64,000 nt of DNA from NCBI GenBank assembly GCA_965116905.1, contig OZ220732.1:1856001-1920000 (forward strand). Reading direction: 5' to 3'. This DNA is from Longimicrobiales bacterium (GTDB taxonomy: Bacteria; Gemmatimonadota; Gemmatimonadetes; Longimicrobiales; Gaopeijiaceae). Below the pieces are notes generated by a model. That model was not told the origin of the DNA. It saw nothing but the letters and a program-made list of their open reading frames with translations, and searched no databases. This document shows positions 1-15,893 of this stretch, piece after piece. The first letter of the stretch is position 1, and each line of letters opens with the position of its first letter. The position numbers and the translations under genes are program-made.

Positions 1-1525
1 CCGAGCCGATGTCGGAGTGCGCGGAGACCGCATCGCCGCCGTGGGCAACCTCACGGGCCGCGAGGCCAGCCGCACGATCGACGCTGCCGACCGCGTGGTC
101 GCGCCGGGCTTCGTCGACATGATGGGCCAGGCCAGCCTCGTGCTGATCACCGATCCGCCGAGCGCCGAAAGCAAGCTGCGCCAGGGCATCACCACCTACC
201 TGTCCGGCGAAGGCGGCTCGGCCGCGCCCCAGAGCGAGGCCACGCTCAGCAATCCGCCCGTGATCGACGGCGACACGCTCCGCTGGCGGCGCTACTCCGA
301 GTACTTCGCGATCATGGAGCGCTACGGGATCCCGATCAACGTGGTCCACGACGTCGGCCTGACCCAGGTGCGGCGCGTGGTGCTCGGCGACGAGGACGTC
401 GCGCCTACGCCCGAGCAGCTCGAGCAGATGAAGGCGTTGGTAAGAGAGGGGATGGAGGATGGAGCCGTCGGCGTGTCCACGTCCCTGATCTATCCGCCAG
501 CGATCTACGCGTCCACGGAGGAGTTGGTCGCCCTCAGCGCGGTGGCCGGCGAGTACGGTGGCGTCTACTTCACGCATATGAGGAACGAGAGCCACGCGGT
601 TCTCGAAGCCATCCGCGAGGCCCTCACGATCGGCGAAGGCGCCGGCGTCCCCGTCCACATCTACCACCTCAAGGCGGCCGGCCAGCGCAACTGGCCCCTC
701 ATGGACGAGGCCCTTGCGCTCATCGACTCGGCGCGCACCGCCGGCATGGACGTCACCGCCGACATCTACCCGTACGTGCGCAACGGCATCGGCCTGGGCT
801 CGTTCCTGCACCCGCGCCACTACGCCCGCGGCACCGGGGCCTTCCTGGCCACGCTCGGCGACCCCGACCTGCGCGCCCGACTGCGCGAAGAGGTCGAGAC
901 CGATCCCGACTGGGAGAACTGGTACCAGCACGTCGGGATGGACTGGAACAACGTGCTGATCGTCTCGGCATCGGACGCCGTCGATCCGGGCGTGGTGAAC
1001 CGCTCGGTGGCCGAGGCGGCCGAGGTCCTCGGCACCGATCCCTGGAACGCCTTCTTCGATCTCGTGCAGGCGGGCGGCGTCAGCGTGAACCCGCTCAGCA
1101 TGAACGAGGAGCAGAAGTGGGCGGCGCTCAGGGCGCCGTTCGTCATGATCGACACCGATGCCTCGCCGGTGAACCCGGCCTCCGTGTCGAGCACGCACCC
1201 CCGGGCCTTCGGGGCCTTCCCGCGCGTGATCGCCAAGTACGTGATGGAGGACGGCGTGATCACGCTCGAGGAGGCCGTGCGCCGCATGACCTCGCTGGCG
1301 GCCCACCGACTGGGCATGTACGACCGCGGCATCGTCGCTCCCGGGATGGCCGCCGACCTGGTCGTGTTCGATCCCGCGCGGCTGCGCGACCGGGCCGACT
1401 TCGGCGCCGACGCGACGCTGCAGTCCGAGGGCGTGGATTACCTGTTCGTGAACGGCGCGCTGGTCATCGACGACGGCGAGCTGACCGACGCCAGACCGGG
1501 GAGGCTGCTCAGGCGGGGGGGGTGA
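1..1525 (+). CDS. N-acyl-D-amino-acid deacylase family amidohydrolase (5' end outside window)
   Basis: Motifs VAPGFVDM, YFTHMRNE, HIYHLK, HPRAFGAFPR, TLEEAVRRMTSLAA, GMAADLVVFDP; frame is open to the window edge. Confidence 0.9.
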   Translation, partial: RADVGVRGDRIAAVGNLTGREASRTIDAADRVVAPGFVDMMGQASLVLITDPPSAESKLRQGITTYLSGEGGSAAPQSEATLSNPPVIDGDTLRWRRYSEYFAIMERYGIPINVVHDVGLTQVRRVVLGDEDVAPTPEQLEQMKALVREGMEDGAVGVSTSLIYPPAIYASTEELVALSAVAGEYGGVYFTHMRNESHAVLEAIREALTIGEGAGVPVHIYHLKAAGQRNWPLMDEALALIDSARTAGMDVTADIYPYVRNGIGLGSFLHPRHYARGTGAFLATLGDPDLRARLREEVETDPDWENWYQHVGMDWNNVLIVSASDAVDPGVVNRSVAEAAEVLGTDPWNAFFDLVQAGGVSVNPLSMNEEQKWAALRAPFVMIDTDASPVNPASVSSTHPRAFGAFPRVIAKYVMEDGVITLEEAVRRMTSLAAHRLGMYDRGIVAPGMAADLVVFDPARLRDRADFGADATLQSEGVDYLFVNGALVIDDGELTDARPGRLLRRGG

Positions 1526-1574
1526 GGGGCTGCGTCGCGGCCGGGACGAATCGCGGCAGCGGATGAGCGCTCTG

Positions 1575-1595
1575 CGTTTCAGCTGAAACGTTTTT
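1575..1595 (+). terminator. Perfect 16-bp palindrome CGTTTCAGCTGAAACG followed by TTTTT; candidate intrinsic terminator or operator
   Basis: Seen directly, 50 bp after the deacylase stop. Confidence 0.4.
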
Positions 1596-1787
1596 CGGCG
1601 GGTGGCGCGGATCTACAGCGTCAGGTTGAACGGTCTGCTGTAGTTGATCACCAGCTGGCGTGGATGAAGCCGCGCGGGCACCGGGAGGGGCGAGGTGCCG
1701 GGCTGGCATGTGGTTGTTGATTCGCATCTTCTTGCGGTAAATGCATTTGCGTGTTCGACAGCCCGGATTCCCGCTGTTTGACTCCCG

Positions 1788-2691
1788 CTATTGCCGGTTT
1801 CCGTCGCGAGCCCGGCAGCGGTCTTCCAGAGCCTTCCCGTCCAAGAGGATCGCCCCTCGCGCCTCGCTCAACGCGGAGAGTGCCTCGGGAGTGACGGGAG
1901 TGGCGTGTTCATAGCCGGACTTGTCGTGCTCGGCGCGCCAGAGGATCGTCCCGCCCTCGAAGTCGATGTCCGCCCACCGAAGCTGGCGGATGGAACCGAT
2001 CCGGTGCCCCGTCTCGTGCGCGAGCACGAGCGCGACGTGAAACCGCCAGTCCACCCGGCGCGACACCTTCAGCAGCGCCCGGTACTCCTCCTCAGTGAGC
2101 ACCACCCGGGTGGGGTTCTTTTCCGTGGGGGTCCTGAGACCTCTCAGCGGATTCCGGTCGAGCAACCACCGGCCTGCTCGTCCCGGGACTTCGCGGCCCA
2201 ATTCAGGACCGCGACCAGGAGCTTGAGGTCGTATTCGACGGTTCGATCCGAAACGTGCCTGCCGCTCGGGCCGATCCTGCCCGCCCTCCGCTCCCGGATG
2301 AAACGGTCCCAGTCCCGTTGTGACAGGGTGGCGGGGTCGCGGCTTCGTCCGAAGAACCGGAGGAACATCCGCATCGCGGCGCGGTCATGCCCCCGCGAAT
2401 GAGCGCCCTTGGTGGGCGTCACCTCCTCACCGTAGATGTCAAAGAGCTTCTCCAGCGTGAGCAGCTCGGGCTTGGCCTCTCCGGCGCGTCGATGAACCCG
2501 GCGGCGAACTGATCCGCCTGCCTCTTTGCGCGCCTCCAGTCGCGATGTTTCAGCGACCGGCTCAGCCTTCGGCCGTTCTCGCGCCACCCAATCTGAAAGA
2601 GGCCGGTCTTGGGGTCGGGAAAGATCGTCACCCGGTTCCGGCCCCACTCGCCGGCGCCGTAGCTCCGCCGGCTTCGTTTCGTGCGTGCCAT
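1788..2691 (-). pseudogene. Tyrosine recombinase/phage integrase pseudogene (two frameshifts plus internal deletion)
   Basis: ATG at 2691 with GAGAGGA RBS. MARTKRSRRSYGAGEWGRNR...FAAGFIDAP, shifting to EAKPELLTLEKLFDIY...DRTVEYDLKLLVAVLNWA, shifting to NPLRGL...LAHETGHRIGSIRQLRWADIDF (catalytic Arg box). The HxxR/Tyr region is missing before the C-terminal KALEDR. Confidence 0.85.
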
Positions 2692-2916
2692 CGTTCGATT
2701 CCTCTCGATTGATGGACTGCACGATCTGCGCAACGCAATCTCGCTGGCCGCGGGCTGTTTGACCAGTGCGACACCCGTGCCGTTCAGTTCGCGAAGCCGA
2801 CCCGAGCCCTTCGTCGAGAACCGATGGAGGAGTGGCCGCCAAGGCCGTTCCCGTATCCGAGGCCGCGCCGGACGGCTCGGGACGATCACCCAAGTCGTTT
2901 CTCGGGCTTCTGGGAC

Positions 2917-3450
2917 CTACCTCCGTCGCGCCCAAAGCCAACGTAACATGCCCGAACGCTCCGGAGCGGACACCTGAGGCTCAACATGGGATGCGTACGC
3001 CTTCTTTATCGCATCCTTCATAGCGTGCCGGTAGGCTTCCTCTGCTTCGCGCAAGGCCGATTCCCGTTGGTCGGTCAAGTTCTGGTCCGGAGGTACTTGT
3101 CCGAGAGCAGCCGTGAGTTCCTTCCTTTTCGTTTGAGCTTCGGAACCAGCATCATCGACTCTTCGTCTCAACTCCTCTGGAACCGCCGGTCGCGCGCGTT
3201 CGAATACCGCTCTCGCCGCCTCAAGCAGCCTTCGTCGGCGCTTGAGCGCTGCCTGCGCCGGATCATCGCCCTCGACGTGCGGCGCTACGGTCGAAGGCAG
3301 GTCAACCATATCAATGTGGGCTTGCAGAAGTATGGTTAGCCGCTCACCTCGCTGTTGCGATTCCCTCTGGCGGCGGGAAATCGTCCGGCTAAACCAACCA
3401 GAAATGATGGCGGCAATGACGCCACTGAAGAGGATCGTCGGCCAATCCAT
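2917..3450 (-). CDS. Hypothetical protein, N-terminal TM helix plus helical body
   Basis: MDWPTILFSGVIAAIISGWF start inside ORF 2917..3864; lower GC than flanks. Confidence 0.55.
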   Translation of the reverse strand: MDWPTILFSGVIAAIISGWFSRTISRRQRESQQRGERLTILLQAHIDMVDLPSTVAPHVEGDDPAQAALKRRRRLLEAARAVFERARPAVPEELRRRVDDAGSEAQTKRKELTAALGQVPPDQNLTDQRESALREAEEAYRHAMKDAIKKAYASHVEPQVSAPERSGMLRWLWARRR

Positions 3451-4194
3451 CGCTTCGCTATTTTCCAAAATGAGAATTTGCCCAAGCCCACCCAACTCAA
3501 ACGTGCGGCACGCCAGCAACCTTCGCAAGGAGACTGAAGCTTCGGGGAGCCATCGCGTTCTGGTGACGCCCCCTGCTTCGCTCAGCGCATGCTGGCCCTC
3601 CCGCAGGGATATTTGTTCGGGAGCGACCCGGCATGAGGGGCGAGGGTGTGCAAGCACGCTCGCCTCTATTGCCGTACCGATCCTTCGGCGAGGGGGTCGC
3701 TCCCCTCCACGGCCTGAGTGGCTACTGTTGCCACGACCGGCCGTGCGGCGGTACCGCAAGACCTTGCCGTGCCGACGGATACGCCGGGGTAGCCGGTGTG
3801 CATCACCGGAACGCCAAAGTGTGCATCGACCCCCGTTGTTTCTTTCACACCTCCGGCCCGGCACGAGACATCAGGCCTCCCAGTAGAATCGAGCCCCGGT
3901 CGGCCGATCCGTCATCCACGTGTCGACCCGTTCCGTCCGCCCCGCACGCCTGCGCGCGCGATGCTCAAGTGCGACGGCGCGCTTCAGGGCGGCCTGCAGG
4001 ACTCCTGACCGAGCTACATGCGAGAGGGAGGCAAGAACCCCGACCAAACCAGCGCCCGACACAGTGTTGCAGAAAGCCGACTTGGTCCCCATCCTGTGGT
4101 TAGTCGATCCGGGTCTGCTCCGCGAAAGCCGCGTCACTGGAATCGAGGGCGGCGCCCCGAAGGTTCGGACATCAGCACCGCCCGGGAGGAAAGC

Positions 4195-5544
4195 ATGAGC
4201 AGGGCGCACTTGGGACCGATCGTCGTCGCACTGGCCGTTGTCCCGCCCGGCGCGGCGCAGGCCCAGGAGGCTTTTGGGGCGGTCGTATGCGTGGGGAGCA
4301 AGTTGGAGAGCATGGCGAACGCCGGGCCGGTACGGCGGGTGGTCCAGAAGGATGTCGAGCTGGTCTACCGCGCGGCGGTCGCATTCGCGGACCGGGACCG
4401 GATCGAAGCGGGCCTTGTGGAGGAGTTGGAACAGACGGAGGTCCGCTGCGTGTGGTCGGAGCCCGGGAACACGCATGTGGTGGTGGTGAAGTACACGGGG
4501 GTGATTCCGCTCGACCTGACGATCGACCCGGATGATCCGCGATTCGACGGTTTTTCGGTGGGGTACGGAACGGACTGGGATGGAGCGGAGGCGAACGCGA
4601 GGCTCGACGCCCGTTTCGACACGTACTACGACCGCCAGGGCTACGAGGTGATCGTGCGGGAACAGTGGAATGCGGGGGGTGCGCGGCAGCCCGCCGGCGC
4701 GGCGCGGGAGGCGCCCCGCCCGGCTGCGGCGGCGGTTGCACCGGGTGGAGGAGGGGACCGGCGGGCCGGCGAGCGCTTCAGTGACTGCGCGGCCTGCCCG
4801 GAGATGGCGGTGGTGCCCGCGGGAAGCTTCATGATGGGGTCGCCGGAGTCGGAGGAGGGGAGGTGGGACGACGAGGGGCCACGCCGCCGGGTGACGATCG
4901 GCAGGCCGTTTGCGGTGGGCGTGTACGAGGTGACGTTCCCCGAGTGGGACGCGTGCGTGGCGTCCGGAGGGTGCGGGGGCTACCGGCCGGGGGATGAGGG
5001 GTGGGGGCGTGGGAGCCGCCCGGTGATCAACGTAAGCTGGGAGGATGCGCGGGAGTACGTCCGGTGGCTGTCCCGGGAGACCGGCGAGGAGTACCGGCTG
5101 CTGACGGAGGCGGAATGGGAGTACGTAGCCCGGGCCGGGACGCAGACGGCGCGGTACTGGGGGGAGAGTGAGTCGGGGCAGTGCCGGTTTGGCAATGGAG
5201 CGGATGCAGCGGCGTTGGCGGAAAACCCGGACTGGATAACGGTATCCTGCAATGACGGTTACAGTCGGACAGCGCTGGTAGGCCTGTTCGAGCCGAACGG
5301 ATTTGGACTGTACGATGTTCTGGGGAATGTCTGGGAGTGGACGCAGGACTGCTGGAACGAGAGCTATTCGGGGGCACCGGCGGATGGCAGCGCGTGGAGT
5401 TCGGGTGATTGTTCCCTGCGTGTGTTGCGCGGCGGCGCCTGGTACCTCGAACCGGGGAACCTCCGTTCGGCGTACCGCGACAGGGACTCGACCGGGACCC
5501 GGAACAACCGCCTCGGTTTCCGGGTCGCCCAGACCATGAATTGA
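4195..5544 (+). CDS. Secreted FGE-sulfatase (SUMF1)/C-type-lectin-fold protein; probable DGR target
   Basis: GGAGGA RBS, signal peptide ending AAQA; CPEMAVVPAGSFMMGS, YEVTFPEW, PVINVSWEDA, YRLLTEAEWEY, NGFGLYDVLGNVWEW, RVLRGGAW...GFRVA. Confidence 0.92.
   Translation: MSRAHLGPIVVALAVVPPGAAQAQEAFGAVVCVGSKLESMANAGPVRRVVQKDVELVYRAAVAFADRDRIEAGLVEELEQTEVRCVWSEPGNTHVVVVKYTGVIPLDLTIDPDDPRFDGFSVGYGTDWDGAEANARLDARFDTYYDRQGYEVIVREQWNAGGARQPAGAAREAPRPAAAAVAPGGGGDRRAGERFSDCAACPEMAVVPAGSFMMGSPESEEGRWDDEGPRRRVTIGRPFAVGVYEVTFPEWDACVASGGCGGYRPGDEGWGRGSRPVINVSWEDAREYVRWLSRETGEEYRLLTEAEWEYVARAGTQTARYWGESESGQCRFGNGADAAALAENPDWITVSCNDGYSRTALVGLFEPNGFGLYDVLGNVWEWTQDCWNESYSGAPADGSAWSSGDCSLRVLRGGAWYLEPGNLRSAYRDRDSTGTRNNRLGFRVAQTMN
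5419..5544 (+). other. Putative DGR variable region (VR) and IMH
   Basis: RGGAW-YLE-PGNLRSA-Y-R-D-R-D-STG-T-RNN-RL-GFRVA. Positions that are Asn (AAC) in typical FGE-type templates are NNC codons here (TAC, CTC, TAC, GAC, GAC, ACC, AAC, AAC, CGC, CTC). Confidence 0.65.
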
Positions 5545-5582
5545 CTCCTGCATCCTTACCTTCTCACCTCCTGCGCGGGGGT

Positions 5583-5617
5583 CCAGGGACGGCGCCCCCT
5601 GGTCGCGGCACGCGACC
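5583..5617 (+). promoter_or_regulatory. Tandem hairpins 3' of VR (candidate DGR homing stem-loop)
   Basis: CCAGGG(5583-88)/CCCTGG(5597-5602) and perfect GGTCGCG-GCA-CGCGACC (5601-5617). Confidence 0.6.
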
Positions 5618-5697
5618 ATAGTCAGATACCCGGACCGGAAGCAGACTTGACGCAAGCGGAGGCGAACGAATCGAGTGTGCCTCGCCCGGAGGCGCCA

Positions 5698-5791
5698 AAG
5701 CACTCCGGCGATGGCGCCCGTGAGACCGGTCCCGCCCTCGAGCTCGACTACCGCTTCATCCTCTGGCTCGTCCCCACGCTGGACCGGTTCC
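5698..5791 (+). pseudogene. avd: DGR accessory protein Avd, 5' fragment
   Basis: Not in ORF track. Frame reads GDGARETGPALELDYRFILWLVPTLDRF, resembling the bAvd-family N-terminus (ETGPALE..Y.F.LWL.P...FP). GGAGG RBS is followed by AAG where ATG is expected. Confidence 0.7.
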
Positions 5792-5840
5792 GGCCCGATG
5801 CGCCGGCGCCGTAGGAGCGCCGGCTTCGTTTCGTGCGTGC
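5784..5840 (-). mobile_element. Second fragment of the same integrase (N-terminus)
   Basis: ARTKRSRRSYGAGASGRNR, nearly identical in DNA to ~2633-2688. Confidence 0.85.
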
Positions 5841-6327
5841 GACCTGCGCGTTGTGAAACTCTGCGCGGGCAGGCGCGTCGTTACCGACGGGCGGTTGACC
5901 GCGTACTGGGTGTTGCGGCATTCGGTCCAACTACACCGAGCACCAGTCGGACGGTGGGCGGAGGCGCCGCCCGAGCATCATCCCCGTTCCGCCCCGGCCA
6001 CGAGGCCCCGAGCGCGGCGGGGGAGGGTTCGAGCGATGACCCCTTGATGTTGGCATTACAGTGTGACCAGTGTTCGAACGACCATCGCGTCGACCATCGC
6101 GCGCGGCAACCCGGATGTCCTATTTTGCACTGCCGACCTGGCGTTCCAGCGAATCGGAAGGAGTTACCATGGGGCAAGAAGATGCCCACCAAACAGACCG
6201 ACAGCGGTGCCGCGACCGGTTGCCAGTGCGAGCCATGGGCGATGGCCGATACGTTCTGCGGCTCGATTGTGGAGAGCATGCTTCCCGGTGTCGCTGGAGG
6301 CAGGCTGGACGCGCCTGAGTCTGACAC

Positions 6328-8682
6328 GTGACTACACCTACCGAGGCCCGACCGAAGACCATCGACGGACGCGCTCGCACCGTCTGGGATCTGCTCCACA
6401 GGGCCAAGTACGCTATCGATTTCTACCAGCGGGAGTACGCATGGAAGGAGCGTCAGGTCCGCGAGCTGATCGACGACCTCACGGGCAAGTTCCTCGACTC
6501 GTACGAACCCGGTCATTCGCGTCACGAGGGTGAGAGGTACGGCCACTACTTCCTCGGCTCCATCGTCATCAGCCACAAGCGCGGACAGCGGTTCGTCGTG
6601 GACGGACAACAGCGCCTGACGACATTGACGCTCCTGCTCATCCACCTCCATCGGCTTCAGGAGGGGCGCGACAAGACCGTAGAGGTGCAGCATCTCGTCT
6701 ACTCTGATTATCGCGGTCGGAAGAGCTTCAACCTTGACGTTCCCGACCGGGCAGAGGTGATGGAGAAGCTGATGGCCGGCAAGCCGCCTGAGGTGAACGG
6801 CGAGAGCGAATCCGTCCGCAATATCGTCGCCCGGTACAGCAACATCGCGGACCACCTTCCCGAAGAGGTAACCGGGTCCGCACTTCCCAGTTTCGTGGAC
6901 TGGCTGTTGTACAACGTGCACCTCGTCGAGATCGAAGCATTCTCGGATGAGGACGCCTACACGATCTTCGAGACGATGAACGACCGGGGCCTGAGCTTGA
7001 GCCTCCCGGAGATGCTCAAGGGGTACGTGCTGGCCAACATCCGCCAAGAGGACGACCAGAAGGCGGTGAACCAGACTTGGAAGAGCCACATGCAACGCCT
7101 GAAGGAACTGGGCGATGAGGAGGACGTGGACTTCTTCAAGAACTGGCTCCGCGCGCGGCACGCCGAGACTATCCGGGCCGGGAAGAAGGGAGCGGAGAAC
7201 CGCGACTACGAGCGGATCGGCACGGAATTCCATCGTTGGGTGCGGGACCAGCGCCAGCGGCTGGGGCTCACCGAGTCCGACGCCTTCTACCGCTTCGTCT
7301 CCCGCGATCTCAACTTCTACGCTCGACGCTCGGCCGAGATCCGCAAGGCCGCGGGCAATCTGACGCCCGACTGGGAGTCCGTCTACTACAACGAGGACCG
7401 GGGGTTCACCCTCCAGACCCAAGCTCTGCTTGCCCCCCTCGCGCCGGACGACGATGCCGACGAGATCAGGCGGAAGGTCGCACTTGTGGCTGACTTCCTC
7501 GACATCTGGCTGGCACGGCGGGTGTGGAACTTTCGCACGATCAGCTACTCGTCGGTCAAGTACACGCTGTTCACCCTGACGAGAGAACTGCGCGCGAAGG
7601 ACTCTGGCGACCTGTCGGCGTTTCTGCTCGGGCAACTCGACGAGCAGCAGGAGCGCTTCGCTAGCGAGCCCCGCTTCCGGCTGCACCATCAGAACTACCG
7701 GCAGGTGAGGCACATCCTGGCTCGGCTGTCGCACTGGGTAGACGTGCGGTGCGGCCTATCGTCGAGCTTTCAGGACCTAGCTTCGAGAGGACGGGCACGA
7801 CCGTTCGAAATCGAGCACATCTGGGCGGACCACTACGACCGGTTCAGCGACTGGTTCGCCCACCCGAGCGACTTCCAAACCGAGCGCAACAAGCTCGGGG
7901 GCCTGCTCCTCCTACAGCGCGGTGTGAATCAGAGCATCGGTGACGCCACCTACGAGGCCAAGCGGGACGCCTACCTCTCGAACAGCCAGAACCTCCTCGC
8001 TCGGAGCCTTCACCCGCTCGCGTACAAGAACCTGCCCGAATTCCAGCGGCTGCTGGACCGGACGGGCCTGCCGTTCCGCGCCTACGACTCATTCGGTCCC
8101 GAGCAGCTGGCGCAGCGACAGGAACTCTACATTCGCATCGCCGAGTGGGTGTGGAATCCGTCGCGACTCGATCTCGACGGGGAGAAGCCGCCTACGCCAG
8201 AACTCATCGCTGAGCATCAGAAGGAGGTGTCGAACGCGACCGGCCGACGGGACCGGAGCGATGCGTGCTTTGACTTCTGGCAAGCCCTCCTGGCCCATGC
8301 GAAAGAGGTCTCCGACCTACATTCGCGGATTTCGGCGAGCCGCATGAACTGGATCGGCACGCGGAGACACGGGCAGTGGTGGAACTACGTGGTCCTGCAA
8401 CATGAGGCGCGAGTGGAACTGTATATCGACGCTCCGCAGGCCGCGGACAACAAGGCCCTGTTCGACGCTCTGTACAGCGACCGTGAGGCCATCGAGGCCG
8501 ATTTCGGCGCGGCGCTCTACTGGCAGCGTCTCGACGACAAACGCGCTTCCCGGATCAGTTTCGCCGTACCGGGAGGGTGGGTGGACTCCGAGGCTTGGCC
8601 GTCTGCGGTTAGTCGCGCCGTCGACGCGATGCAGCGTTTGTACAACGCTATTTCCCCTCGCGTCGAGGTCGCCACGGCGTGA
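6328..8682 (+). CDS. GmrSD-family type IV restriction protein (DUF262+DUF1524/HNH) with C-terminal DUF4268-like domain
   Basis: YQREYAW, VVDGQQRLTTL, FETMNDRG, FEIEHI, NKLGGLLLL; C-terminal RVELYID...IEADFG..LYWQRLDDKRASRI. Confidence 0.88.
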   Translation: MTTPTEARPKTIDGRARTVWDLLHRAKYAIDFYQREYAWKERQVRELIDDLTGKFLDSYEPGHSRHEGERYGHYFLGSIVISHKRGQRFVVDGQQRLTTLTLLLIHLHRLQEGRDKTVEVQHLVYSDYRGRKSFNLDVPDRAEVMEKLMAGKPPEVNGESESVRNIVARYSNIADHLPEEVTGSALPSFVDWLLYNVHLVEIEAFSDEDAYTIFETMNDRGLSLSLPEMLKGYVLANIRQEDDQKAVNQTWKSHMQRLKELGDEEDVDFFKNWLRARHAETIRAGKKGAENRDYERIGTEFHRWVRDQRQRLGLTESDAFYRFVSRDLNFYARRSAEIRKAAGNLTPDWESVYYNEDRGFTLQTQALLAPLAPDDDADEIRRKVALVADFLDIWLARRVWNFRTISYSSVKYTLFTLTRELRAKDSGDLSAFLLGQLDEQQERFASEPRFRLHHQNYRQVRHILARLSHWVDVRCGLSSSFQDLASRGRARPFEIEHIWADHYDRFSDWFAHPSDFQTERNKLGGLLLLQRGVNQSIGDATYEAKRDAYLSNSQNLLARSLHPLAYKNLPEFQRLLDRTGLPFRAYDSFGPEQLAQRQELYIRIAEWVWNPSRLDLDGEKPPTPELIAEHQKEVSNATGRRDRSDACFDFWQALLAHAKEVSDLHSRISASRMNWIGTRRHGQWWNYVVLQHEARVELYIDAPQAADNKALFDALYSDREAIEADFGAALYWQRLDDKRASRISFAVPGGWVDSEAWPSAVSRAVDAMQRLYNAISPRVEVATA

Positions 8683-8859
8683 ACGGTACGGTGTTCGCGG
8701 TTCCGTTCATGCTCCTTCCCAAGGCGTGGTTCTGGCCCAAGTTCGCTGGCTACCGACGGCGGGGAGGAAACAGTCGGAGGGCGGCGGCCCGCACGTCGGT
8801 GGACAGTCCGAAGATGACGGCGACGGCCAGCGCCCCGAGGGCAACGTAGAGGAGCAGGC

Positions 8860-9213
8860 TCACGGCCCGACCTCCGGGAACCGATCCGACTGCTCGCCCG
8901 CCGGTATCTGGCGGAGCTTCCGCACCGCGCGCGACACGTCGCGGGCATCGGAGCGGATCAGGAGCCAATCGTCGCCGAACCGGGTCAGGCGGACCCAACA
9001 CAACCCGTCCCCGGCTTCGTCGATAGCAACGACTTCGCGGGCGTGGATTCTCCGCCTGTAGGCTTGCCCGATGATTCCGGTGTCGCTCACGGAATGAACT
9101 TGCCCCCATGATGGTGTAATCCTGCTCATCGGGCGACCACGGTTTGATCCGATGCTGCCCGGGCGCGGGACTTGTCGCAGGACGCCGACGAACTTCCCGA
9201 ATAGGCTGGTCAT
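8860..9213 (-). CDS. Small hypothetical protein
   Basis: Plausible globular composition; start uncertain. Confidence 0.3.
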   Translation of the reverse strand: MTSLFGKFVGVLRQVPRPGSIGSNRGRPMSRITPSWGQVHSVSDTGIIGQAYRRRIHAREVVAIDEAGDGLCWVRLTRFGDDWLLIRSDARDVSRAVRKLRQIPAGEQSDRFPEVGP

Positions 9214-9404
9214 CGGGATGCGCCGTCAAGGGAGAAGGGGCGATGACGCCCCCGCGCGCGCGCTCCTATCCGGGGCGCGGGTCTTCTGGGTTCGAAGGGC
9301 TGGAGTATGCTGCTCGGCCAAAAATGCACCGGCACTGTCTCAGTGGCGGTCTCCAGTAGCGGGGGCTGGGGTTGGACGGTGGCATGGGGTCTCCGACTCA
9401 ACCC

Positions 9405-9902
9405 TCACGCTTTGGATTCTTCGACCGGGGACTCGTCGCTAACAATGAGGGCTGGCTTAAGTCTCTTTCGCGCCACCAACAGTCTCGACGCCAGCGCTCT
9501 GATCCACGCGTTCAGCTGTTCCCCGTCGTAAGAACCATCAGGGTGCTTGGCCTCCGGATGGGCCTTCTCGAAGTCCACCAGAAGGCTATGCCACACAAAC
9601 AGCTTCTTCTCACCCAGACCGTCCTTCACATACTGGTTGATGAGTTCGTAGGCTTGATCCACCCGCAAGTTCCTTAGCGCTGCGGCATTCTTCTTCTCCT
9701 GCCAGCGTGCCCGGATGGCTCCGTAGACCACCGGGGACACCAACACGATGGTCCCCAACGACCACAGCGCGAGCCGAGCACCGCACTCGTCAAGTCTCGC
9801 AAGTACGGCGAGCAGGTGGGCCAAATCCCACGGCAACACGAATATCGCCACGATCCAAGCGGCTACCGCGAACATCACCCGGAGTACGTCTCTCTTGCCC
9901 AT
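9405..9902 (-). CDS. Hypothetical membrane protein (2 N-terminal TM)
   Basis: Two hydrophobic helices then a soluble domain; lower GC. Confidence 0.55.
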   Translation of the reverse strand: MGKRDVLRVMFAVAAWIVAIFVLPWDLAHLLAVLARLDECGARLALWSLGTIVLVSPVVYGAIRARWQEKKNAAALRNLRVDQAYELINQYVKDGLGEKKLFVWHSLLVDFEKAHPEAKHPDGSYDGEQLNAWIRALASRLLVARKRLKPALIVSDESPVEESKA

Positions 9903-10288
9903 CTCGCACGCTAACGAACCCGGCGACCCATGTCACCTCTAGAGATGGTGGCAGGTGCGGGCGGCCTTCGCCTAAGCCCACCAGTCGGCGGACTAATCCG
10001 GCGTGAGGGCAGTATGGCGCTGGTCATCGGGATGCGGCGTCCGGGACTATGTGCGACGCCGCGCGCGCGCAATCCACCGGAGCGCGGGTCTTAGGGGGAT
10101 CGAAGGGGCGCAGTCCCTCGCCAGCCCCTCCGGGGCACGCACGGGAGTGTGGCGAGGGGGACGGCCAAGCCACACCAGCGTGGCTCGAGCCAGCCTTGCG
10201 GATGCCCGCAAGACGCTTCAACTGCGCCGGACGGAAGGACCGGGCACCAAGCCGTCGCGGGGCGCTCCTCGGCCTGTTGGACGCCAGC

Positions 10289-10621
10289 CTACTTCACCTC
10301 GCGAGCCAGGATGCGCTCGATTTCCTTCCTCACTTCTCTGATGATCTCGTCTTTGACTTCGTCGCGGCTTCGTTCCAGCGCGATTCGTTCGTACTTGGCT
10401 GGGTTGAACCCCCGAGGCGCATTCAGCGTGTAGCCCTTGCGTTGGAATAGGGCCTCGATCCGCATTTCGCTGTCCGCGTTCTCTTTCTTCACAGCGGTGA
10501 GCGTCTCTGCCTGCACCTTTCTCATCCCGCGCCGGGTCCAGATGCCCCAGGCCAGCACAGTCGTCACGAGGATACCAGTGTAGTGGTCCTGGAGCAGTTG
10601 CGAGAGCCACGACGAGTCCAT
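10289..10621 (-). CDS. Hypothetical protein, single TM plus charged helical tail
   Basis: GILVTTVLAWGIW then coiled-coil-like C-terminus. Confidence 0.5.
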   Translation of the reverse strand: MDSSWLSQLLQDHYTGILVTTVLAWGIWTRRGMRKVQAETLTAVKKENADSEMRIEALFQRKGYTLNAPRGFNPAKYERIALERSRDEVKDEIIREVRKEIERILAREVK

Positions 10622-10718
10622 GCATCCACGTTGACGCTGCCGACGCTCAGAGTCAACGGGGATTCTCCACCGCTGCGAGAAGGTCCGCGAACCATTCGAG
10701 GCGGCCCGATCCAGATCT

Positions 10719-13505
10719 CTATCGCCGCCGCCGTTTCAGCTTCTTGATCCCAACGCCCAGCGGCGCGCGCATTTTCTCGTAGAGCATGAACAGGTACTCG
10801 GCGCGTTCGCGTTCGGAGGCGAAGCGCCGGGTGCGGTAGAGCCGATCCACGGCGCGGTCGAGCGCCCAATGGGCGCGTCGAAGACCGAGCGGCATCAGAT
10901 CAGGATCGTAAAGGTCCGCCAGAGTCGCGTCGGGGTGGGCGGCGCGAGCGTCGAGAACGGCCTGCGCCAGAGTCTCAAGCCTGTCGTTGTTGGCCCAGCG
11001 GGTGGGCGTCGGAAAGGTGTTGTAGACGAGGCCGATGGAGTAGCGGTAGTCGCTCTTCAGCCGTCCGCCGATGTGGCGCAGCCACGCCATGTGCATGGCC
11101 GAGGTGAGAAGCGCGAAGTGTGTGAGCGTGGCGTTCTCCAGAATGCGAACGAGGTTGCTCGGTATCGTCGGCGGCTCCAGCCAGCCGATGGGAACGTAGT
11201 CCCGCCTTTCCGAACTTACCTCGGGGACGACGAGGAAGGGTGCGGTCGGGATGACGTTGACATGATACAGCGTCGGCGTCTCGGCCAGCTTCCGCGTCGG
11301 CGCGCTCCGGCTGGCCTCGCGGTAGGAACGCACCGCTGCGATCCGATCCCGTACGGCTGGCATCCCCGCCAAGACATTGGGCGGGGCATCGTGGAGAGCG
11401 AGGATCCACCTGCCGCCGCCTTGCAGATACTCGCGTGCGCCGATGTAGGGCCGTATGTACGGCTTCGCCGCCGGTTCGCCCGCGACGAACTCGGCGCACT
11501 TCTCCTCTGTGCGGAAGATGTAATGACCACCATCGATTGGTTTGGAGCCGATTCTCAGCTTCGGCAGCCCGTTCACCGGGGCGCTCTCCTCCCGTACCGC
11601 CAAGTGTGGATCGGCGAGTCCTCCAGCATCGAACAAATAGGGTGAGAGCACGGCGTGCCGGCTTTGCTCGGGGTCGCCGTTGATGTCGGGATAGCTGAAC
11701 AGGCGCTTCCTCCTGGGTACCGCATCGCGGCCATCGAGCCCGACTATGACGACATGCACATGGGCCTTTCCGCGTGCGTCCGATCCCCACGCGAAGGTCC
11801 GGTGGGCGAACGCGATCTCCAGCCCACAGCGGTCGAAGAGGACCGGCCACAGCTGAGCCACCTGCTCGCCCTGGGCGATCGAATTCGTAGCCACGAAGCC
11901 GATCCGGGTACGGGTGCCATTAGCGTACTCTCCGGCCTTGATGAACCACGCGGTCACGTAGTCGAGCGTCCCGCCCGTCCCGCCGAGGGCCGCGATCCCC
12001 CGCACTTGGGCGCGCTGGGCCTTGCTCTGGAACTTCGAGCCCCCAAAGGGCGGGTTCCCGAATACGAAGGAACACTTCTTGGGTGCCAGCAGATCGCCCC
12101 AGTCCATCTCCAGCGCGTCCCCGTGGACGATGTGCGGGGAAGTCTCAAGCGGAATCCGCGTGTACGTCTGTCCGAACTCCAAGCTCAGCCGGTTGTTCAT
12201 GATGTGGTCCATCATCCACATCGCGGTCTCCGCGATGCGGACGGGGAACTCACCGATTTCGATCCCGTAGAACTGGTCCACGTTGACGAGGGACAGTTCC
12301 GACGCCAGCGCGTCCAACTGTCGGTCGCCCTTCCGGTGAAGCTCCTTCAGGACCTCGATCTCAAGTTCCCGCAACTCGCGGTAGGCGATGATGAGGAAGT
12401 TCCCGCACCCGCACGCGGGGTCGAAGAAGGTCATCCGTCCGAGCTTCTCCTGAAACCGGCGGAGGTCGGCCCGGCGGCGGCTGTCCTTTCGGGCTTTCAG
12501 GCGCTCGAACTCGGCGCGAAGATCGTCCAGAAACAGCGGCCCAATCACCTTGAGGATGTTCTTCTCGGTCGTGTAGTGCGCCCCCTGTTTGCGGCGCTCC
12601 ACCGGGTCCATGACCGACTGGAACAGCGCGCCGAATATGGCGGGCGAGATGTTCGACCAGTCGAACCGGCAGGCGTCCAGCAACGCCGTCCGCATCTCCC
12701 GGTTGAACGCAGGGATGCGTAGCGGCTCCTCGAACAACCGGCCATTGACGTAGGGGAAGCGGGCAAAGTCCTCGTCGGTCGTCGTATAGCGCGCCTCCTC
12801 CCGCGTGTCCAAGACCTGGAACAGGTAGGCCAATCGCGATCCCGTATCCGATCCGTCCGCGGCCGTGCGGCTCTCAAGAAGGTCGAAGAAGATGTCGCGC
12901 GGCTCGAAGATGCCCGTGTCGTCGGCGAACAGGCAGAACACGATCCGCACGAGAAAGCGCTCCAGATCGTGGCCACGGTAGCCTGCGGCGTCGAGTGCAT
13001 CGTGCAGCCGCCCGACCAGTTCGGCGGCCTCGATGTTGACGGGGTCCTGATCGCGGAATGTCCGGCGCTGGACGCCGAGAATGAAGCCGAATTCCTCGAC
13101 ATGGCCGGGCAAGTCCGCGAGGGAGAACAAGACGGTCTCCCGTTCGTCCAAATCGTGAAGCTCGAACGTCTGAAAATCGCTGACGAGGATGTACCGCGGG
13201 CGGTCGCGCTCGGGGAGCGCATCGAAATATTCCCCAGCCTGCCCGTACGCCTTCCCTAAATCGCGCCCGGCGCTCTTCTGCTCGACGATCAGGACGCCCG
13301 GCCAGAACAGGTCTATGAAGCCCGACCGGTTGTCGAGCTTGCCGACATGCTCCTCATAGCGTGCCACTGACCGCCGGCGCACGTCGAACACCTCGAAGAA
13401 ATCGTTGTAGAAGCTCTGCGTCTCGCCCTTCTCGTAGGCCGCGTCCCGCCAGTCTTCGGCGAAGGACGCTGCACGGACGCGCACCTCGTTCCACGAGAGG
13501 CGCAT
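10719..13505 (-). CDS. MmeI/YeeA-like type IIL/IIG restriction-modification enzyme (N6-adenine MTase with endonuclease N-terminus)
   Basis: GFIDLFWPGVLIVEQKS, GAHYTTEKNI, FFDPACGCGNF, GNPPF, GGRLKSDYRYS, LADLYDPDLMP. Confidence 0.93.
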   Translation of the reverse strand: MRLSWNEVRVRAASFAEDWRDAAYEKGETQSFYNDFFEVFDVRRRSVARYEEHVGKLDNRSGFIDLFWPGVLIVEQKSAGRDLGKAYGQAGEYFDALPERDRPRYILVSDFQTFELHDLDERETVLFSLADLPGHVEEFGFILGVQRRTFRDQDPVNIEAAELVGRLHDALDAAGYRGHDLERFLVRIVFCLFADDTGIFEPRDIFFDLLESRTAADGSDTGSRLAYLFQVLDTREEARYTTTDEDFARFPYVNGRLFEEPLRIPAFNREMRTALLDACRFDWSNISPAIFGALFQSVMDPVERRKQGAHYTTEKNILKVIGPLFLDDLRAEFERLKARKDSRRRADLRRFQEKLGRMTFFDPACGCGNFLIIAYRELRELEIEVLKELHRKGDRQLDALASELSLVNVDQFYGIEIGEFPVRIAETAMWMMDHIMNNRLSLEFGQTYTRIPLETSPHIVHGDALEMDWGDLLAPKKCSFVFGNPPFGGSKFQSKAQRAQVRGIAALGGTGGTLDYVTAWFIKAGEYANGTRTRIGFVATNSIAQGEQVAQLWPVLFDRCGLEIAFAHRTFAWGSDARGKAHVHVVIVGLDGRDAVPRRKRLFSYPDINGDPEQSRHAVLSPYLFDAGGLADPHLAVREESAPVNGLPKLRIGSKPIDGGHYIFRTEEKCAEFVAGEPAAKPYIRPYIGAREYLQGGGRWILALHDAPPNVLAGMPAVRDRIAAVRSYREASRSAPTRKLAETPTLYHVNVIPTAPFLVVPEVSSERRDYVPIGWLEPPTIPSNLVRILENATLTHFALLTSAMHMAWLRHIGGRLKSDYRYSIGLVYNTFPTPTRWANNDRLETLAQAVLDARAAHPDATLADLYDPDLMPLGLRRAHWALDRAVDRLYRTRRFASERERAEYLFMLYEKMRAPLGVGIKKLKRRRR

Positions 13506-13591
13506 CCGGCTACTCCTCCGTCATCCCGATGACCGAACGCGATAACCCAGAGGCTGCATCGTCAGCAACCAGCCGGATCGCCGGCAATGGG

Positions 13592-13909
13592 TTACCGAGG
13601 GACCGCATCGCGCACCCCGATGTCCTCCCGCCATCCGCGCGCCCTGCGTGCCTGCGCAAGCTCGTAGCTCGCCTGCATCCGCATCCAGTGGTCGGCCGTG
13701 CCCCAACCAAGGTCCTCCAGTGCCAGCGCCATGTTCGCTGACACGCCCGCCTTGCCGTTCAGCAGCCGCGATAGCGTGCCTCGCTCGCAACCCAGGTGGG
13801 CGGCGGTTTCGGTCACGTTCCATCCGACCTCGTCCATGCTCTCCCGGATGAGTTCGCCCAAGTGCGGGGGGTCGAGCATCGCAACGACGCGCTCGCCGCT
13901 TCCGGTCAT
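13592..13909 (-). CDS. higA: HigA antitoxin (XRE HTH)
   Basis: PPHLGELIRE...TLSRLLNGKAGVSANMALAL...WMRMQASYEL; directly downstream of higB. Confidence 0.9.
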   Translation of the reverse strand: MTGSGERVVAMLDPPHLGELIRESMDEVGWNVTETAAHLGCERGTLSRLLNGKAGVSANMALALEDLGWGTADHWMRMQASYELAQARRARGWREDIGVRDAVPR

Positions 13910-13926
13910 GTCCTTCCTCCTTCCGT

Positions 13927-14199
13927 TCAATGGTAATCTACCAGATCCACGTCCACTGCCTCGCCGTCCTCGAAACGGAACACCACGCGCCAGTTCCCAG
14001 AGACACGCACGCTCCATTGGCTTGCCCGGTCCCCTTTCAACGGGTGCAGCCTGAAACCAGGGGCGTCCGCGCTACCGGGACGCGTCGCTTCCTGCAATCG
14101 GAACAGAATGCGCCGAAGCCGGGGAACCAGATTGGCGGGGAGCCGGGATCGGTCACCCCGTTCATGGAGCGCCCGCAGTCCCTTGTGCCGGATCTTCAT
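13927..14199 (-). CDS. higB: HigB toxin (RelE/ParE superfamily)
   Basis: IRHKGLRAL...GFRLHPLKGDR..WSVRVSGNWRVVFRFEDGEAVDVDLVDYH. Confidence 0.92.
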   Translation of the reverse strand: MKIRHKGLRALHERGDRSRLPANLVPRLRRILFRLQEATRPGSADAPGFRLHPLKGDRASQWSVRVSGNWRVVFRFEDGEAVDVDLVDYH

Positions 14200-14413
14200 G
14201 GACCAACTGTAGCGCGTCGCGTTACACGCCGCCAGTTCTTGGTCACCTGGAGTGCCGCACTACGGCGGTGTGGTTCAGACTCGTTCTGAGGCGACCTACA
14301 GCGGGCGGTGTACCCAACGCCTCGGCCCGCTGAACGGGCAGTCGTCGAATACCGTTTCGGATGAGCGTGCCGTCAGTCCCCAGCCCCTACCGTCTGGGTT
14401 GAGGCCGGAGATA

Positions 14414-15670
14414 CTACTCCGTGATGTCCGTGCCTTCAGCCGCGCTGACTACGACTCCGGCGATGGCGTTCAAGAGATCCCTCGGCGATTCGGCCTCACC
14501 CTCGGGCACAGTGAAATGCGGGTCCGACAGAAACTCGGCGATGGCGGCTTGAATCAAAGCCAGGGAAATCCGTCGGCAGAGGTCCTCGTCCGCACGCGCA
14601 TTGCGGGGCACGATCCGCTTTTCCCGCTCACGGCCCGGAAGCGTAACGAAACAGGTGGTAGGCGTCAGCGGTGCGATCAATCGCATGCCGTCCTGTGTTC
14701 CCGTCCGAATCGCAAACGTATCGGGCAGGACAAACACCGGTCGCGCGGAACGAATCATCGCCCAAGGACTCCACATCAGCGGAGACGCAATCTCATGATA
14801 GAATTCGTTGTTTCCGTACAGCGCTTCATAGGCCTTGCGAGGCATCTCCGGATCGCCGCCGTAACCGAGTTCGACAATCACCGGTGCGATGCCTCGGTGA
14901 AGCGCGGCGACGGTGTAGGGGTTCCGCAAGAACTGGATGACAAGGAATCCGACAAGCGCCTCGCATTGCGGTGAGTTGAGGGGCCTCGTCCCGAGAAGCA
15001 TCTCGATTGGACGCTTGGCGTCGCCCTCCAGCAGCCCGAAGTACGCCTCCAGCCGATCGCTGTACAGATCGCGGCGGTAGCCCCACTGGCCGAATCCGCA
15101 CTCCTTCGATGTCCAGCCCTCGGACGTTCGTCGCCACCGCAGGACCTTCCCGTTTGTCGCCCAGTGGTCACGGATCAACCAGCGCGGAATGAAATGGTTC
15201 TTGCCTACCGGCTTCACCGCCAATTTCGCCCGCCGGGGGTTCGCCTCGCGCTCGGCCGCTTTGGCCGACTTCGGCTTCCATCGCTCCTCCAAGCGTTTCG
15301 ACCAGAAGCGCTCATGGATTATCCGCGCCGTAGCGCTAATGGTGTCCGCGCCATCCGGGCCGAGACATTCCTCCTTCTCCTGATCGGGATCAATGGATGA
15401 CAAGTCCCGACCGGCGACCCGCTTCTCGACGACCTTCTCGGCCAGCCAAGGCTGCAGCTGGGCAAGTTCCAACACCATTTCCTCGCGGACGTTCACGTGA
15501 AGTTCGACTCTGTCGGCCCCGTTCAGCGTCAGCATCTCGGTGACGATCCGTTTGACAACTTCGTCCCAGATCGCTGTCAGAACACTGATCGACTGGTGGT
15601 CGACTTCCGGAAACAGCTTCTGGACTGCCGTCCCAGAAACCCAGCCTTTCCTTGTAGGGGGAAGATCCAT
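14414..15670 (-). CDS. DUF4238-like domain protein with N-terminal extension
   Basis: NHFIPRWLI motif, LEAYFGLLEG, FLVIQFLRNP, FVLPD, IAPLTPTTC. Confidence 0.65.
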   Translation of the reverse strand: MDLPPTRKGWVSGTAVQKLFPEVDHQSISVLTAIWDEVVKRIVTEMLTLNGADRVELHVNVREEMVLELAQLQPWLAEKVVEKRVAGRDLSSIDPDQEKEECLGPDGADTISATARIIHERFWSKRLEERWKPKSAKAAEREANPRRAKLAVKPVGKNHFIPRWLIRDHWATNGKVLRWRRTSEGWTSKECGFGQWGYRRDLYSDRLEAYFGLLEGDAKRPIEMLLGTRPLNSPQCEALVGFLVIQFLRNPYTVAALHRGIAPVIVELGYGGDPEMPRKAYEALYGNNEFYHEIASPLMWSPWAMIRSARPVFVLPDTFAIRTGTQDGMRLIAPLTPTTCFVTLPGREREKRIVPRNARADEDLCRRISLALIQAAIAEFLSDPHFTVPEGEAESPRDLLNAIAGVVVSAAEGTDITE

Positions 15671-15893
15671 TCTCAATCCACGGCTGCTGTGACGGTTTGA
15701 GTCCTGCCTGAAGTTGGGTCGCGCGAGAATGGGCGGTTGTGGCCCCTCTGCTCTTTGCGAGCCTCGGCTCGCCGCAAATCTACTGCCCCGAAGAATCGAT
15801 TTGAATCGTTGACCCCATCGATCCGCGACCGGGATGCTCAGATCGAGCGGCTGAGATTAGGCGCGGTGGGTTTCTCTGGACGGTCTCCAGGAG

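Follow-up and report, generated by a model that had tools for sequence, protein, structure and literature searches.

A DGR target gene beside a severed avd in a Longimicrobiales genome: a probable relic

A Longimicrobiales genome carries a DGR target gene that ends in a variable repeat (VR) with an adenine signature, followed by hairpins and by the severed start of avd, which is joined to an integrase remnant. The genome yielded neither an RT nor a TR nor a whole avd, and intact relatives show the layout to which these pieces belong. Very probably this is the left half of a DGR whose machinery was lost in one deletion, with the integrase cut as well, and whose variant is frozen. In the mechanism proposed, the locus would derive from a DGR of the avd-RT-TR type, and the last rewriting of its target likely used a template that the genome no longer has. 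The end of avd, the RT and the TR were likely removed by one microhomology-mediated deletion that also cut the neighbouring integrase, and the target protein is probably a frozen binding variant. The preliminary description had proposed a DGR target with a severed avd and lost TR and RT, with a frozen variant as one of two outcomes; the VR signature and the failure to find RT, TR or whole avd agree with it on both counts. The window, i.e. the whole stretch of 64,000 nucleotides analysed, sits in a single 4.2-Mb contig (G000) that is 97.4% complete and in which no terminal overlap was found. Its features are listed in Table 1.

Table 1. Features of the locus, with positions in the window
Feature	Position	Strand	Remarks
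Frameshifted copy of the same integrase, left side of the island	1788..2691	-	PF00589; stop after 89 codons; syntenic with a G010 locus
Target gene, 449 aa	4195..5544	+	Open frame: signal-peptide-like start, unnamed N-domain, linker, FGE/C-type-lectin-fold domain ending in the VR
Likely Sec signal peptide	4195..4263	+	Hydrophobic core, A-Q-A end, without lipobox cysteine; judged by reading the sequence
N-domain, 137 aa, no known family	4264..4674	+	Residues 24-160
VR, residues 409-445	5419..5529	+	Likeness to the G258 TR; variability at TR-A positions
IMH-like 3' end of the VR	5518..5544	+	TR/VR homology stops here in G258; putative IMH role, after PMC5758913
Hairpin 1, eroded, 6-bp stem	5583..5602	+	A at 5589 where relatives have G
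Hairpin 2, perfect 8-bp stem, 3-nt loop	5600..5618	+	Overlaps hairpin 1 by 3 nt
avd 5' fragment, 48 of about 140 codons	5647..5791	+	Begins about TTG 5647; frame continues into antisense integrase DNA, stop 5812-5814
8-nt word CCGGTTCC, common to avd and antisense integrase	5784..5791	.	Likely deletion joint
Tyrosine-integrase 5' remnant and upstream DNA	5784..5925	-	About 19 codons; start codon and ribosome site missing; coding fragment 5784-5840

An intact FGE-domain gene had been described here, and it stands: the 449-residue frame is open, and PF03781 matches residues 201-445 (E 5e-55, Pfam profile search). The solved relatives of the protein, by sequence, are PvdO (E 5e-58), TvpA (E 6e-11) and FGE as well, and the protein has the CLec/FGE ligand-binding fold expected of a DGR target. 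It does not have the two cysteines after the GGS motif that distinguish a formylglycine-generating enzyme. These active-site cysteines are catalytic in FGE; in an alignment to human and bacterial FGE their positions fall inside the VR. By eye, the N-terminus reads as a signal peptide with no cysteine after it, and neither a lipobox nor an anchor is visible in the sequence. The protein would be exported and would bind a ligand via the VR surface without FGE chemistry. The Treponema denticola protein TvpA (PDB 2y3c) offers a parallel, as it has a lectin fold of the FGE subtype in which VR residues replace the catalytic loop, and the portion of PMC5758913 available describes it as being without FGE activity. 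TvpA has a working DGR; the protein here differs from it also in its additional N-domain and in showing no lipobox.

The N-domain has no match in Pfam or in the Atlas. A sequence search gave 49 matches, itself included, one of them a protein of Candidatus Palauibacter sp., and in relatives the domain is also fused to PF04151, to beta-propeller-type and to unannotated C-termini. Its structure model has a pLDDT of 79. The best fold match, 7nhz (Rv1813c; Z 7.6, rmsd 2.8, 88 aligned), is a weak likeness inside the usual background, and Foldseek gave no clear fold (best E 0.5). The window contains no tRNA; Rfam gives no family match in 1500-9000, and 3800-6400 has no sigma-70 promoter match.

The C-terminal VR shows the adenine-restricted change that marks a DGR target gene, here as a relic. 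It is 80% identical to the TR of G258, the nearest intact DGR, and is changed at 13 of 27 A positions and at 9 of 84 others. Among 15 VRs of the genus, variability is 0.49 at TR-A positions, as defined by two outside TRs, and 0.058 elsewhere; these are the in-register members of 22 distinct 3' ends from genus loci (7, with gaps or in other frames, were left out), and as the sequences are related, the p-value overstates. The third C of AAC-derived codons is retained in 132/135 cases in genus VRs, while positions 1 and 2 vary. With the homologue P0163, the VR shares 3/16 variable residues and 20/21 constant ones. Against three homologues in G010, dN/dS of the target gene is 0.12-0.36 outside the VR and 2.5-5.2 inside it, where sites are few, and dS is 0.07-0.15 in the VR vs 0.19-0.52 outside. 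Fourfold sites differ between species in 191 of 1,087 comparisons in the VR and in 2,070 of 4,894 upstream. Given this low synonymous divergence, it is likely that closely related templates served to rewrite the VRs once these genes had split, or that VRs were swapped among paralogues.

How well preserved are the signals for homing? By homology to G258 and to its remote target, the locus appears to retain an IMH and a downstream GC-rich hairpin. The hairpins of the preliminary description survive in part. Hairpin 2 is perfect, and G258 forms a similar second stem. Hairpin 1 is eroded (6 bp, -4.7 kcal/mol vs 9 bp, -10.6 in G258), and folding of the hairpin region is not above that of shuffles (z -0.8 vs -4.4 for G258). 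Private changes at non-template positions are found at 5437 and 5491 in the VR and downstream at 5531, where contigs of relatives have G and this genome has A, and at 5589. In the text available of PMC3240598, stem structure is required for efficient homing; the later point changes in the VR, the IMH and hairpin 1 would lower the efficiency of re-targeting.

The frame thought to resemble the N-terminus of Avd is confirmed, with a start at about 5647, earlier than the 5698 first given. The Avd profile check suggested at that stage had a mixed outcome. Generic profiles (Pfam, NCBIfam) give no match on the stub; PF22296 matches the closest full-length Avd only from residue 51 on and so has little overlap with the stub. 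A family HMM, built from 120 homologues of Avd from an intact DGR, ranks the stub first of 85,685 six-frame stretches of the genome (E 2.6e-7; next E 2); on the reversed genome, as a control, its best E is 0.6. Used as a query, the 48-codon stub matches 21 longer proteins, the best of them a PF22296 member that is 83% identical over the full stub. Spacer and avd together are 80% identical over 65 residues to P0121.

That avd is severed by an integrase fragment is correct insofar as a 5' piece of an integrase lies on the minus strand at 5784-5840. It is not a simple insertion, as both genes are cut at one 8-nt word. Contigs of relatives that carry avd, from other runs, align through 5791 and then carry on in Avd (with loose ends), and the integrase copies of the genome align from 5784 onward; the two genes therefore overlap in this word. 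From the sequence, a single microhomology-mediated deletion may have taken at least 1,461 nt of the DGR and most of the integrase, about 1.1 kb. Judging by depth arithmetic, coverage of the joint in run X1 is close to that of a single copy. The integrase family has nine copies in the genome, six of which are open for 385-389 codons. Integration via an att site within the integrase was also considered and is ruled out, as six of the nine copies are complete and the genome has no avd 3' half to match.

Intact cognate DGRs are found in three more distant relatives, G258, G441 and G434, the last of them from the same class as G000. Their order is target-avd-RT-TR, and the layout avd-TR-RT assumed in the preliminary description has to be corrected. 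In G441 the avd-adjacent target also carries this N-domain, and 61% of 404 aligned columns are identical. VRs beside the working DGRs of G258 and G441 show 0-3 non-A differences from their own TR. G258 also has a remote target, 2.67 Mb from its DGR, which carries the hairpin and differs from the TR at 13 A positions and at no others; this match to the TR with adenine-only changes shows that remote targeting exists in the DGR family. The avd-adjacent target of the intact G441 DGR (L159:9502-10935) has a one-base frameshift inside the VR, and the cassette is flanked by two further targets, one of which is interrupted by a gene pair that we take, from its motifs, to be IS21-like. A Paracoccaceae DGR of the same layout (L109:2530-4100) has an RT split over frames and a stop inside the target VR.

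This layout is familiar. In the part of Wu et al. (PMC5758913) available, architecture B2 is avd-RT-TR, category 'b' comprises FGE-sulfatase/CLec1 targets, and remote targets are described for chromosomal DGRs. G258, G441 and G434 match B2 exactly, with remote targets as in that account. Like a B2 DGR as described there, the locus has a C-terminal VR in an FGE domain, an IMH-like end, a GC-rich inverted repeat and avd next to it. It differs in its unnamed N-domain and in that the genome lacks RT, TR and two-thirds of avd.

Could RT and TR act from elsewhere in the genome, as had been proposed? In the scan for an adenine-only TR, recommended with that proposal, every second site in G000 had at least 11 non-A mismatches, whichever 60-nt tile was used, on a single contig that is 97.4% complete, so that an unbinned plasmid or phage could be missed. 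The search for a DGR RT was likewise negative: G000 has no PF00078 match, and three cognate RTs reach a best E of 0.18 by tblastn. The avd-RT-TR DNA of G258 matches G000 at the VR, the avd stub and two FGE paralogue ends only, with no match to the RT, and the six-frame search with the family HMM found no whole avd. In all, neither a DGR-type RT nor an adenine-only TR nor a whole avd was found in G000; a cognate TR and RT elsewhere in the genome, as a remote target needs, are present in the relative G258 and were not found here.

The question extends to DNA outside the assembly. A cognate DGR might sit on a replicon missing from the assembly, or in part of the population, and go on diversifying the target in trans; this is quite unlikely. 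Action at a distance is known in the family from the G258 target, with its adenine-only differences and its hairpin. Contigs with avd run past 5791 in runs X2, X3 and X5, and in X1, possibly the source sample, there is a VR/TR-like contig at depth 3.8 alongside avd-like contigs with other flanks. Against this, the assembly is without RT, TR or whole avd, and hairpin 1 is eroded. In X1 the VR lies in one unbroken contig, which covers 3800-5789 at depth 38 with zero differences (these are contigs only, from which rare variants get dropped). There is no second X1 contig near depth 38 over 5479-5520, at an alignment cut-off of 80% that is close to the 80-85% likeness expected of a cognate TR, and 5549-5702 is covered at exactly depth 38. 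VRs near the working DGRs of G258 and G441 have 0-3 non-A changes, whereas the VR here has several private ones.

Relics of this kind recur across the genus. A DGR-type RT was found in none of the 53 genus genomes searched: what matches there are share just 25-35% identity with a cognate RT, the commonest being open frames of 457-513 aa, and cognate DGR RTs are 83-84% identical among themselves. The same 53 genomes have no whole avd, with two fragments from an Avd alignment search, and NF033474 is found in 0/36 genus genomes. VR-stamped genes, in contrast, occur in 10 of the 53 genomes, with 24 matches to the VR/TR pattern, none in the all-AAC template form. The closest Avd has matches in 3/314 family genomes, one of them whole, and in 9/401 phylum genomes. 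Neither the VR-end pattern nor a relative of the closest Avd turned up on viral contigs, and the sole metagenome match is another orphan target. Full-length Avds (83%) seem to be co-located with targets that have the same signal peptide, and probably close relatives outside the 53 representatives still hold the machinery.

Several genus genomes carry relics: Avd residues 38-83 with a stop in G068, a frameshifted middle piece of avd in G006 (weak by HMM, E 0.057), RT codons 25-58 in G207 and an FGE start fused to an avd start in G171. Their break points differ, so repeated loss of the machinery is likely. In G010 the pattern matches 10 times, duplicates included, and the hairpins range from near-perfect to lost. 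Its target arrays with identical VRs, at G010:C1:28411-38839 and 4082812-4090474, lie near both contig ends, through either genuine duplication or an error of assembly. Repeated gain and loss of one DGR family across the genus is likely, and would have left paralogues with different fixed VRs that were also shuffled by recombination.

Did recombination alone produce the locus? A VR-hairpin-avd tail could have been grafted from a target diversified elsewhere, onto a gene copy that was never in a working cassette, with variety arising from RT-independent shuffling of modules. This is very improbable as the origin of the locus. In its favour, more than one FGE backbone bears a VR-stamped end, which requires two changes on a tree of 33 genes, drawn from retrieved loci only; one change suffices in 0% of bootstrap trees, but the starred branches by themselves force only one. 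Two G010 genes have one common VR and the N-domain is in only one of them, and P0163 is identical at 130/137 N-domain positions but at 150/202 in the FGE core. On the other side, the N-domain target of G441 lies directly 5' of avd-RT-TR, and in the window the spacer and avd continue unbroken from the hairpins, as the match to P0121 indicates. Grafting would in any case leave the VR frozen too, and differs in history alone. An ordinary FGE-family paralogue with a tail and downstream frame that are DGR-like by chance deserves almost no credence: G000 has eight other FGE paralogues without hairpin or stub and generic Avd profiles find nothing, but the score and identity of the stub and the retained third-position C refute it.

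The targets adjoin the same integrase family in several genomes, and here the gene lies ahead of GmrSD, MmeI-type and HigBA genes; with integrase and defence-type genes as neighbours, the targets are likely island cargo. The defence-type cluster at 6328-15676 of the window comprises GmrSD with DUF4268, an MmeI-type enzyme, a HigB-like toxin with an HTH partner, and DUF4238. The stretch at 3585-3998, between integrase and target, is conserved in G010 (88%), in G171 (76%) and in a sister island, and has no Rfam match. The sister island (G000:C1:2192966-2198538) has a whole integrase copy, an 88% match to window 3595-3998 and an FGE paralogue that lacks a hairpin. By tblastn, further FGE paralogues form tandem arrays at G000:C1:4105797-4114841 (four) and 3576909-3579318 (two), with divergent tails and no hairpin. 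Possibly these are older DGR products.

Degenerate DGR loci are already in print (10.1101/2023.09.22.558884; PMC7517822, as far as these texts are available), and taken singly the locus is an ordinary relic. In the available text on Thiohalocapsa PB-PSB1 (10.1101/2023.09.22.558884), machinery is also missing or pseudogenised, mobile elements cause breaks, and CLec targets have modular N-terminal domains. Each class there keeps one complete locus, whereas no machinery was found in G000, and the breaks are made by an IS or MITE array, whereas here a tyrosine integrase is fused. Orphan variable-protein paralogues of cyanobacteria, e.g. all3226 of Nostoc PCC 7120, are likewise remnant VRs without a nearby RT, and in the part available of that account the authors suggest removal of the machinery after variant selection (PMC7517822). 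According to the same partial source, Nostoc PCC 7120 still has two DGRs; the genus here has a DGR RT in 0/53 genomes and VR-stamped genes in 10/53. Among openly accessible papers, no report of such a genus-wide pattern of stamped genes without machinery was found.

What gives the locus its value is that it records cleanly how a DGR is shut down: the joint can be identified, and there are intact relatives to compare it with. Most worth pursuing is the pattern of stamped genes across the genus. Stamped genes, the lack of a DGR RT in all 53 genomes and the lower synonymous divergence of the VRs suggest that the output of a DGR outlives the element, and that RT-anchored surveys undercount. The published idea that machinery is dropped after variant selection becomes testable with strain-level data. 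As a tentative proposal, rather doubtful at present, a mobile DGR may cross strains of the genus, rewrite VR-bearing paralogues in trans and then be deleted, a hit-and-run that would leave a fixed repertoire open to re-randomisation on its return. If this is true, RT-anchored surveys would miss such a repertoire entirely.
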